A stretch of DNA of 64,000 nt from Patellaria atrata CBS 101060 (Eukaryota), in contig MU006110.1 in NCBI GenBank assembly GCA_010093705.1, positions 62,001 through 126,000 of the forward strand. The letters run 5' to 3'. Of this stretch, positions 57,199-60,524 are shown piece by piece; the stretch's first letter is position 1; each line of letters begins with the position of its first letter. A program made the translations under genes and the position numbers. The notes beneath the pieces are model-generated. The model had not been told where the DNA came from and made no database searches. It saw nothing but the letters and a program-made list of their open reading frames with translations.

Positions 57199-60100
57199 TT
57201 AGTCACTGTCGTTCAACTTGTGGTAATCCACAATCTCGGAATAGCTATGTCCGGCTTCCGTTAGCCTTACGTTGGGATTACATACTCGGAGAATGAATGG
57301 TATACATACCACATGATCTTCCAGGTGTCAACGGGAAGGTCAGCATCGGTGAATCCCCAGTCGAACTTCTTATCGGCAACAGGTTCATCACTTGGGTCGT
57401 GATAGGGAGCAAGGTATGGGTGAGCTAATGCTTGACTGGCATCAATCCGTTTCCGGGGATCCATGACAAGCATCTTTTCTAAAAGATCAATTGCTGTGTT
57501 CCGTCAGAGTCACTTCTCTCCTTAACTCGGTGCTCAGCATACCCAAAGGATCTGCACCCTCAAAGACGGTGCTAAGTGGTTGTGGTTCACGTTTCGGAAG
57601 CGACTCCACGAATTTCCGTGTCTATCATTACTGTCAGCGGGTTCACATAGCCGGCCGCAGTATATCGTACATTCTCACTGCTGATCATATGGATTACATC
57701 ATCCGATGGACTCCCTAGAAGATCGGTAATAATCTGGAGTTGGTGGACATGGTCTCTTCCTGGAAAGATAGGCTTTTGCCTTAGCATCTCCGCGAGGATA
57801 CATCCTGCACTCCAGATATCAACCTCTACATTATAATTTCGCCAGGCGAGCATTATTTCCGGAGCCCTGTAATGTCGTGTGGTAACATAACCAGTCATTT
57901 CGGGGTCTACGATTCGGGACAGACCGAAGTCGCAAATTTTAAGATCGCAGTTCTCGTTAATAAGAATGTTACTGGGCTTGAGATCTCGATGAACGATACC
58001 GGTAGAGTGAACGTATTTCAAACCTCGCTATACATAGTAAGTTAAGCACTATAACCGGGCTTTCTGTTATCTACACACCAATATTTGATATATGAAGTAC
58101 TGAACGATTCCTTTCTCTAAAAGCTGACTTTGGAGTACGCGATGAAGATCACATCCTAGGAGCTCCGTGACGAAATAACTATCACTCTGGAATTAGTAAA
58201 ATTCACACCAACAACCCTTTTTCAAACGTACATATCTTCTAACGGAGAAATATATATGTCACTAAGGGTAATAACCTGGAAATTGTCAGCTTGTCGGGTG
58301 TTTTGAGAATAAGGCCACGAACGTTTTCGTGTTGGATCTCTTTGAGGAGCTTTAACTCGCGATATGTACGTTTCGCTAGAACGGGGTTGTCGAAAGGTTT
58401 CAGAATCTTCTTGATGGCAACATGTCGTCCAGTAAGTATGTCTTTGGCCTTACTGCGGAAATGTCAGCACTAAATGTGTGGTCTAAGTAACGGGGAAGAA
58501 CACAAACCAAACGAGGCCGAAAGTGCCCATGCCAACTGGCTGCAGTTCAACATATCTTTCCAATTATTTCAGTAATGCAATCAGTGAGCCAGTCCCCATA
58601 TTCTCTTACCTTCTCGTGAGTTCAAATGATGTACCAAAGACATAGGTACACATAAAATCGGAGTTAATGGATACTTCTCCGTTTGATTTGCTTTCATTCA
58701 TTTCTATATCGGCCGTTTCTTTCACACTTTCGTCGGGATCATTATCATATATAGTGTGATCGGTCGTCGGCTTCAGATCCGTGAAAAAAGTCTCCTTGCT
58801 GGGAGAGAAATTTAAATAAGGCGGACACGTCGGCAGGACATTGATCTTGCTAGCAGTAGAATGATACTGACTTTGAGCTACATCGGGTACGGTCCATTCG
58901 AGGAGACGCTCTTTCTGCGCTGGTACGGTCCAGGGAATCGTGGTTGTGGGTTCTTGATGATGAGAAACCAATTTCTGGATTTTATATTGCCACCTACTGC
59001 TATGTCTGGTATTAGGAAATTTGGGGGTCTTCGCGAGCTGTGTGCGGTGAATGCGGACGATTCGGATTGTGCTCCTATCGCTGCGTAATCTTTTGTGAAG
59101 CGCATTAATGCCAGAATCATTACTATAATCCATATCGTCTGCCCCTCGTTTCGTCAGGGTCTTGGGCATGTAGTTGTGCGCTGATATCTCGTCCGGACGG
59201 TATGGTAGCGGCAACGGTTTGCGAGCAGCGTCAAACCATATGTTGCATACAGAACTAGGTTTAGTGAGATAAGAATCACAAGCGATTGAAAAAACTCCTT
59301 ACCATGAACTACCGCCGCCTTTATGCGGTTCGAATGTTGTAGATTTGCAACCAGGTCTAGGACACCTGTTTGAGCCCCTCCAATCATACTGGCCTATGAT
59401 TATCGCCATTGTAATTCTCATCCCTGGTATAAGTGTCTCGCTATCCTCATGGCCAGAGATATCCTGCGTACTGTCCATAGAGTTGAAAAGTTCAAACTCA
59501 CCAGCTAGAACCTTTTCATAGCCTGGTCCATTTCTAAACTGTTCCACAAGAACAGCTCGGAGTTTCTGAAATCTTTTAGTTTCAATGACGTAGATGACAA
59601 CATATCTTGGAGTCTTACACCCCAAGTATACTCTGAGGGGACTGGAAATACACGTCCCATAGCATCCTCAAATCGTACTGGTTCTTGGAACCATGTGTAC
59701 TGCAAATTCGGTACAGGACCGGAAGTCTGAATATCCGTCAAGATAGTGATGATTTTCAAGTTCGAGTTCCAAATGTTTTTAGTGAGTTCGATGAGTTGCC
59801 TTAATTGCGGAAGCATATCCCTATGATCTACTCAGTATCCTCACTTCTTCAGTACAGTCAAAATTTCACATCTTACCGTGTTACCAACTTCGAGAGTCGG
59901 ATTAATATTGAATTGTTGCTCCGCGTAAGAATATCGCCTTGGATCACAAGCTCGTGCGTGGTCGCAAGAGCTGTACTTACGCTCTCAATACCGCTACTTA
60001 TGTCCATTCGAGCTTTACCTGTTTCTTCCACTGCCATAGAAGCTGACTTCCTAGAAAACCTCAGTCTTTTCTTACCTTACCAGGTTTAGGCCAACTTACA

Positions 60101-60524
60101 GTCCCTCGGTCATTAGTCTCATGTTCAGACTCCCCACATGAGCTATCAGGTACGCTCTCAAATTAGAAACCTCATCTGCCATCTTAAAACGCCATTTTAC
60201 TTTATCTCCGATTCTCTTCACTGTCGCTCTCCTAGAGGTCTGCTCGGGAGCATCGGTAAGACTCTCAAACTTCTTCAACTTTGCTGCAAACTCGTCTAGG
60301 GGATATTGACACATGAGGGCGGCGACCTTAATGCTATTTGTAACTGCTTCGCGGCCGGGTGGGCACGGGAGATGCTCGATCTCTCGAAGAGCCCGTTGAA
60401 GGCCATGGAGTTCGAGTATTAGCTCACGGTATTCTGCTACGGAGGAGCCCTGGAGAGATGATGTGATATCCGCAATCAATTTACCAACAGCGATAAAGTC
60501 ACCAACCGAAAACCCAAAAGACAT
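57199..60524 (-). CDS. Chimeric protein of about 900 aa: SesA/HeLo-like STAND N-terminal domain + ubiquitin-like domain + Cys4 Zn-ribbon + HOG1/p38-type MAP kinase (13 exons)
   Basis: N-terminus [43 protein letters not shown]...CSVC. A continuous exon (59254-58610) runs into [10 protein letters not shown] / [16 protein letters not shown], then [22 protein letters not shown] and [19 protein letters not shown]. All 12 introns are GT..AG and phase-compatible. Confidence 0.85.

Follow-up and report, generated by a model that had tools for sequence, protein, structure and literature searches.

Does a Hog1-type stress kinase of the wood fungus Patellaria atrata CBS 101060 act as a free enzyme, as mitogen-activated protein (MAP) kinases almost always do, or is it the C-terminal half of a much larger protein? 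The question is raised by a minus-strand locus at positions 57199-60524 of the stretch analysed here (the window: 64,000 nt of contig MU006110.1 in assembly GCA_010093705.1; all coordinates below are window positions), where the public annotation of this strain has two adjacent genes with consecutive accessions on one 332,670-bp contig. The upstream public protein (P0122) is a hypothetical protein of 355 residues that matches the exon for a ubiquitin-like (Ubl) domain at 100%, and the downstream one (P0013) is a 343-residue 'kinase-like protein' that matches the largest kinase exon at 100%. We consider it probable that the two are parts of one gene, and that the public annotation splits a lineage-specific fusion in two.

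An earlier note on this DNA had joined five exons (60524-60100, 60050-59877, 59820-59619, 59565-59303 and 59254-58610) at canonical GT-AG sites into one open frame, running from a SesA/HeLo-like N-terminus through a ubiquitin-like part and a zinc ribbon into a complete HOG1/p38 MAP kinase. Splicing and translation reproduced this frame, with GT..AG at the borders and the peptides that the note had quoted. Adding eight kinase exons to the five gave a coding sequence of 2697 nt in 13 exons, or 898 codons plus a stop, the frame being closed by a TAA at 57201-57199. All 12 introns are GT-AG and measure 47-65 nt, and the G+C content of eight of them is lower than that of both flanking exons. The kinase exons of the model correspond letter for letter to P0013, and exons 1-4 to P0122 apart from the final P0122 residue. 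The 898-codon frame is thus continuous from the N-terminal module into a full-length kinase of the Hog1/p38 type, the Pkinase profile (PF00069) matching P0013 over all of its 263 positions (1-263; E 7.9e-67). The parts of the locus are listed here with the evidence for each; P0137 is a protein of Lignoscripta atroalba, loci with an L number come from a metagenome scan, and A1, A2 and A4 are alignments.

57199..60524, minus strand: whole 13-exon model, 898 codons plus stop (splicing and translation).
60100..60524, minus strand: exon 1, opening with the start ATG (A at -3) and covering the predicted helical N-terminal domain, residues 1-141 (splicing; identity to Lignoscripta and to L001/L005).
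59877..60050, minus strand: exon 2, helical region (splicing; P0137 alignment).
59619..59820, minus strand: exon 3, end of the helical region and start of the ULD_2 domain (splicing; Pfam).
59303..59565, minus strand: exon 4, remainder of ULD_2 and first half of the predicted zinc ribbon, C335 and C340 (Pfam; alignment A2).
59395..59687, minus strand: ULD_2 domain, residues 245-324, with intron 3 inside (PF22893 on P0122).
59255..59302, minus strand: intron 4, 48 nt, GTAAGG..CTAG (splicing; same junction spliced in Lignoscripta P0137).
59245..59364, minus strand: predicted four-cysteine ribbon, C-x4-C...C-x2-C, with C335, C340, C355 and C358 (alignments A1 and A2).
58610..59254, minus strand: exon 5, holding the other half of the ribbon, the conserved basic and the unique linker, and the first 15 kinase residues (open-frame statistics; homologues).
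58969..59254, minus strand: conserved linker spanning about residues 355-450 and containing two basic clusters (HMMER search; alignment A1; P0137).
58654..58821, minus strand: unique linker of about residues 500-555, free of stops and without detectable homologues (the P0137 blastp alignment stops at 499).
58651..58653, minus strand: in-frame ATG that is the public kinase start (T at -3; N-terminus of P0013).
58556..58609, minus strand: intron 5, 54 nt (spliced in the fused model and in the public kinase model).
58555-58508, 58452-58323, 58275-58232, 58178-58079, 58027-57671, 57621-57543, 57493-57310 and 57244-57199, minus strand: kinase exons 6-13, stop included (identity to P0013; PF00069).
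57887..57895, minus strand: TGY dual-phosphorylation motif of the activation loop (codons and alignment A4).

The two halves meet in exon 5, which holds both the conserved linker and the kinase N-terminus without a break. The 214-codon frame of this exon has a chance of 1.3e-5 of being open (none of 20,000 shuffles was), and the other two frames of the stretch that contains it (58606-59298) have 7 and 20 stops. The earlier note had named a misassembly at about 58.6-59.2 kb as a possible source of error. We inspected DNA contigs of two sequencing runs of one sample (X1 and X2; depth figures 315 and 451). These contigs, which may be the source data of the assembly itself, were unbroken over 56900-60900, showed no differences from it, and had neither joints nor loose ends. 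That the joint is an artefact of assembly between two unlinked genes is in our view extremely improbable: nothing was found in favour of it, and both the unbroken contigs and the uninterrupted exon that spans linker and kinase N-terminus argue against it.

The upstream end of the public split was judged against a relative of the module. Over residues 1-499 the spliced model is colinear with its orthologue in the lichen fungus Lignoscripta atroalba (P0137, MCJ1256829.1, 644 residues), at 59% identity and with six gap positions. The alignment crosses all four junctions, and P0137 is itself annotated as spliced at the position of intron 4, forming a C-x2-C. At 59299-59303 P0122 ends in ...SSW and a stop, the TAA of which lies within the unspliced donor of intron 4 (TG/GTAAGG, read as TGG TAA). 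Because the junction is spliced in P0137 and the sequence beyond it is conserved, the 355-residue model ends too early. By these comparisons intron 4 is real and the upstream end of the public gene split looks wrong; P0122, cut in the middle of a conserved four-cysteine ribbon, is very likely an annotation error whatever the outcome for the fusion.

The segments on either side of this junction are well conserved. The ubiquitin-like part claimed earlier was confirmed by a match of the ULD_2 family (PF22893) to residues 245-324 of P0122 at 51.6 bits, against a cut-off of 24.5 (E 1.1e-13), and the two halves of the domain also matched separately in exon 3 and exon 4. Of the four cysteines that follow, C335 and C340 are invariant (five of five rows of A2), the codon of the third is split by intron 4 and formed across the junction as in P0137, and the last is invariant in all 11 rows of A1, together with several linker residues. 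No Pfam model matched these four cysteines; with its two conserved pairs the segment is a predicted zinc ribbon, in line with the earlier claim, and its second half, behind intron 4, is conserved in relatives. An exhaustive HMMER search with the exon-5 translation returned 10 proteins at E<=1e-3 (best 3.4e-26), open reading frames (ORFs) from other assemblies, all of which cover the first 80-147 residues of the exon, with about 90 codons conserved. Loci L001, L005 and L006 likewise keep the second C-x2-C and some 90 residues after it. Word matching of exon 5 to proteins 376-2000 residues long gave nothing, and of 59 pattern matches in a metagenome scan with the linker alignment A1 none was confirmed. 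By eye, the two basic clusters of the conserved linker are a candidate bipartite nuclear-import signal.

The downstream end of the split, by contrast with the upstream one, can be read in two ways. If the public annotation were about right and the two genes were expressed apart, the module gene would end by keeping either intron 4 (355 residues) or intron 5 (about 570 residues, overlapping the kinase start), and the kinase promoter would lie inside exon 5, with translation starting at the internal Met or at a Met 16 codons upstream. This arrangement agrees with the public annotation of two adjacent genes. Both retained-intron readings close at a TAA built by the donor, that of intron 5 lying at 58608-58606; the in-frame ATG at 58653-58651, which is the start of P0013, has a TATATA-like element about 100 nt upstream; and canonical Hog1 homology begins essentially at this ATG. 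The 355-residue end, however, interrupts a ribbon and linker that 11 of 11 aligned relatives retain and that are joined by splicing in the annotated Lignoscripta protein, whereas keeping intron 5 would make the genes overlap and place the kinase promoter wholly within coding sequence. The only in-frame stops open to the upstream gene are those in unspliced intron 4, in unspliced intron 5 and at the end of the kinase. From residue 499, the last with detectable homology, to the kinase Met there are 56 codons, unique to this locus, every one of them open and in frame, for which the chance is about 0.05 x 1/3 (arithmetic from stop-codon frequency); there is no space among them for the upstream gene to stop and form its 3' end and for a second promoter to follow. 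Moreover, no kinase can be made unless intron 5 is spliced, and the same splicing would yield the fused frame from whatever upstream transcripts reach it. We therefore regard two separate genes as unlikely, though a possibility to be reckoned with.

The usual kinase start Met, which the earlier note had held to be absent, is a related matter. In an ungapped reading of the first 20 residues the position of the ancestral Hog1 start is indeed not an ATG here; the in-frame ATG at 58653-58651, however, lies only four codons past it, and the two residues before this internal Met are still like a Hog1 N-terminus.

Several points weigh against a single gene. The annotators, who called two genes, may have had transcript data, and the sequencing runs listed were two, both of DNA, with no RNA run among them. 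With an ATG four codons after the ancestral start, a stand-alone kinase can be made, and the TATATA element stands in exon 5 ~100 nt 5' of it; this is weak evidence, the odds that such a hexamer turns up in the exon by chance being roughly one in four (a hand estimate from the base composition of exon 5). The fusion was seen in one genome only, and comparison therefore offers no proof that selection keeps the joint. No second P. atrata protein appeared among the members listed (at most 15 per cluster) in 10 Hog1 clusters. The roles of the module, finally, are ones that we infer, and its predicted fold is poor (mean predicted local distance difference test score, pLDDT, of 44). Besides the fused form, a kinase-only isoform from the internal start is possible.

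Length in itself is of little help here. The stand-alone Hog1s listed have about 340-490 residues, and the Patellaria frame extends 555 codons 5' while its internal ATG permits a form of 343 residues. Much longer Hog1 entries exist: the 90%-identity cluster of the Colletotrichum Hog1 P0084 also has proteins of 817-1310 residues named AVL9 or HOG1, and a Linnemannia 'MAPK protein hog1' (P0016) has 1374. Such Hog1-containing public models may be merged neighbours, and length alone is therefore no evidence of a true fusion.

The kinase half is intact and fast-evolving. Akin to the Hog1/Sty1/SakA stress kinases of the p38 class (for example P0102 of Aulographum hederae and P0074 of Stemphylium lycopersici), it has the same kinase domain, the TGY motif, the catalytic and docking residues and an intron-rich gene; it differs from canonical Hog1 in its lost ancestral start codon, its 555 in-frame upstream codons and its long branch. 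T167, G168 and Y169 are invariant in all 25 rows of alignment A4, the Patellaria kinase included, as are K45, E63, H135-R136-D137, D155-F156-G157, A177-P178-E179, D300, D303 and E304, so that the catalytic Lys, the alphaC Glu, the HRD, DFG and APE motifs and the acidic DxxDEP common-docking residues are all retained. In a tree of 37 Hog1 proteins it fell within the ascomycete clade (support of 96 in the SH-aLRT, the Shimodaira-Hasegawa-like approximate likelihood ratio test) and an unresolved Pezizomycotina group (82), on an end branch whose length, 1.35 changes per column, is 14-fold the median (0.097), its exact placement being unsure. Its identity to 20 canonical Hog1s is 71-75%, compared with 80-93% between these Hog1s and P0102; the kinase is thus 25-29% diverged from all Hog1s compared, and changed at 31 of the 210 positions that are invariant across the 20. 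From its sequence the kinase is apparently an active, fast-evolving Hog1 copy that a MAP kinase kinase (MAPKK) can switch on. The eight introns in the kinase part point to an origin by duplication at the DNA level. Elsewhere in the window no second Hog1 reached a meaningful E-value.

Could the kinase be the only functional part? A recent arrival of the kinase gene in the tail of the module gene might have inactivated the latter, leaving the upstream part as a young, undecayed pseudogene. That nothing in the window corresponds to the distal Lignoscripta tail (residues 500-644) would fit, as would the restriction of the fusion to the P. atrata genome. Yet the 555 codons upstream of the kinase, spread over five exons, contain neither a stop nor a frameshift, and their splice sites are intact. 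Exon 1 shares 72% identity with the Lignoscripta protein and 62-63% with L001/L005, and measured against L001, L005 and L010 as three outgroups it stands at 63, 62 and 39% for P. atrata and at 65, 66 and 39% for Lignoscripta, with no acceleration of rate. The Ubl-plus-linker part of P. atrata lies 4-8 points below that of Lignoscripta. An exon 1 as conserved as that of Lignoscripta, and a Ubl and linker only these few points lower, argue against a decaying pseudogene; in addition, if the joint dates from the duplication, the 25-29% divergence of the kinase from other Hog1s speaks against a very recent event. On this evidence a dead upstream part is improbable.

If one gene encodes both halves, where did the fusion arise? 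A metagenome scan with the module alignment yielded 13 related loci, and a tblastn search with the 898-residue model found the kinase part in none of them; Lignoscripta P0137 likewise lacks it. The sequence continues into the conserved linker in L005, L006 and, by eye, L001. In the Atlas, no kinase family occurs in the ULD_2-family clusters closest to the module. With no kinase in the 13 loci or in P0137, the fusion would be lineage-specific, and within the sample available it appears confined to P. atrata. P0137 and L001-L006 share with the Patellaria protein the helical domain, ULD_2, the four-cysteine ribbon split by the same intron, and the basic linker; P0137 differs in having no kinase, its residues 500-644 being unrelated to Patellaria residues 500-555. 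Marks of insertion beside the kinase (repeats, breaks in composition) were limited to short chance matches. Neither the relatives nor the literature searched contained a protein of this architecture, in line with the earlier note, and the same literature mentioned neither PF22893 nor any fusion of Hog1 with HeLo-like/SesA domains.

The tails of the kinase-less relatives showed features of their own. Pfam found no domain on those of the L005 ORFs, P0127-P0133, P0136 and P0137. In L005 (12150-12400) and P0128 (residues ~375-390) a long tail ends in A-C-x2-C-R-x-L-K-K, which in L005 is followed by a short intron and then C-x5-C-x2-C; by eye this resembles the Zn2Cys6 DNA-binding motif of fungi, with no Pfam match on the unspliced pieces. 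The L001 tail (12100-13370) carries a stretch of ~30 residues twice, ~900 nt apart, and a degenerate copy of the Zn2Cys6-like start. If the Zn2Cys6 pattern is real, the module would have been paired, from one fungus to another, with differing C-terminal domains that may be nuclear.

The earlier note had called the N-terminal domain SesA/HeLo-like. No Pfam family matched exon 1 or the first 240 residues of P0122, where the gathering scores of PF17111 (PigL_N, or HeLo-like_N) and PF17107 (SesA) were not reached. In the scan for PigL_N and SesA, which covered five sequences including the window copy, two relatives gave sub-threshold matches, L010 to PigL_N (23.8 bits, cut-off 27.2) and SesA (15.8 bits, cut-off 26.3) and L001 to PigL_N (16.2 bits), and L005 and L011 gave none to either. 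A language-model search of the Atlas led, with a score of 0.94, to clusters in which 13-21% of the members have PF17111 or PF17107. An AlphaFold2 model of P0122 from an 11-row alignment was poor overall (predicted template-modelling score, pTM, of 0.26) and all-helical over residues 7-231, where the pLDDT is 25-52. A profile search of the PDB with the N-domain alignment had its best hit at E 0.34, which is noise. The SesA/HeLo-like identity is therefore weakly supported, by the sub-threshold matches in relatives and the language-model lead, the window copy itself contributing no match. The N-terminal domain is 62-72% identical across dothideomycete, lecanoromycete and metagenome fungi, which is unusually conserved for a type of domain usually tied to fast-evolving genes of non-self recognition.

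Plant NLRs (proteins with a nucleotide-binding domain and leucine-rich repeats) with integrated decoys embody the idea of a pathway component that is copied into another protein and then evolves fast. The earlier note had offered such a decoy as one reading of the fusion. We rejected it: Pfam found no NACHT, NB-ARC or other NLR domain on the exons, P0122 or P0013, so that the Patellaria protein has no NLR chassis. As a further difference, the kinase keeps all catalytic residues.

With the fungal HeLo-like/SesA NLR (STAND, signal-transducing ATPases with numerous domains) proteins the Patellaria protein would have in common a helical domain from residue 1, and its relatives the weak PigL_N/SesA matches; it differs from them in lacking NACHT/NB-ARC and repeats and in having a kinase that is C-terminal and of the MAPK type. 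According to passages of PMC9815663, Pkinase is among 19 profiles of N-terminal NLR domains.

A more remote parallel is MLKL, the pseudokinase of which is phosphorylated and thereby releases an N-terminal executioner domain, a four-helix bundle (4HB), as described in PMC12881547 and PMC9815663; the same papers place the HeLo, HeLo-like and SesA profiles together with this MLKL bundle. The order of parts in the MLKLs of animals and plants would be alike if the Patellaria N-domain were a HeLo-like/4HB relative. An independent MLKL-like design, with a HeLo-like, membrane-attacking N-domain restrained by a kinase that is phosphorylated by the MAPKK of the high-osmolarity glycerol (HOG) pathway, is in our judgement a long shot, rated low because the fold of the N-domain comes only from a poor predicted model. 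The 4HB is hypothetical here, and the PDB profile search revealed no sequence relationship between MLKL and the Patellaria N-domain. In contrast to the MLKL pseudokinase, moreover, the Patellaria kinase is a catalytically intact MAPK, and a Ubl, a zinc ribbon and ~200 linker residues lie between the parts. Were the MLKL-like design true, strong or aberrant HOG signalling (e.g. from toxins of antagonists that hyperactivate the pathway) would be wired to a cell-death or membrane response and, by a Rosetta-stone corollary, the kinase-less relatives of the module, some with Zn2Cys6-like tails, would be unrecognised partners or targets of Hog1.

For the single fused gene that we favour, the following course of events may be proposed. 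An ancestral Pezizomycotina gene would have encoded the N-terminal helical domain (remotely PigL_N/SesA-like), ULD_2, the four-cysteine ribbon, the conserved basic linker and a variable tail. In P. atrata the distal tail would have given way to a copy of the Hog1 gene, duplicated at the DNA level with introns retained, whereupon the module frame ran without a stop into the kinase. Transcripts from the upstream promoter, spliced at intron 5, would give a single chain of ~100 kDa. The kinase half, to judge from its TGY loop and docking residues, would still be switched on through that loop by a Pbs2-type MAPKK of the HOG pathway, and the N-terminal module might set the location or the substrate of the kinase by tethering it to a membrane or a partner.

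If this is correct, a Hog1-type kinase fixed to a conserved module amounts to a natural experiment in the re-targeting of a stress kinase. By the logic of gene fusion it would also link the HOG pathway functionally to a widespread, uncharacterised fungal family with the helical domain, ULD_2 and the zinc ribbon. What appears to be new is a Hog1-class kinase carrying a large, conserved and uncharacterised N-terminal module, in a lineage-specific fusion of one species that a split annotation had hidden. A concrete correction of the annotation concerns the public 355-residue protein, truncated in the middle of the conserved zinc ribbon.

The surroundings of the locus were also surveyed. A (TA)8 run at 60637-60652, ~115 nt 5' of the exon-1 ATG, is a plausible TATA element of the upstream promoter. 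On the minus strand at 52320-54281 there is a stop-to-stop open frame of 653 codons, with no Pfam family at E<=0.001. The same window holds genes for a Rab GDP-dissociation inhibitor (PF00996) and ribosomal protein S17e (PF00833), at 44452-45460 and 51029-51403; with these housekeeping genes nearby, the locus lies in an ordinary gene-dense chromosome context, with no obvious repeat-rich island. Just upstream of the fused gene, also on the minus strand, stand genes of the Bys1 family (Blastomyces yeast-phase-specific protein, PF04681) at 61291-62002 and 62825-63259, where PF04681 matched three ORF pieces (E 6e-8, 5e-5 and 9e-5).

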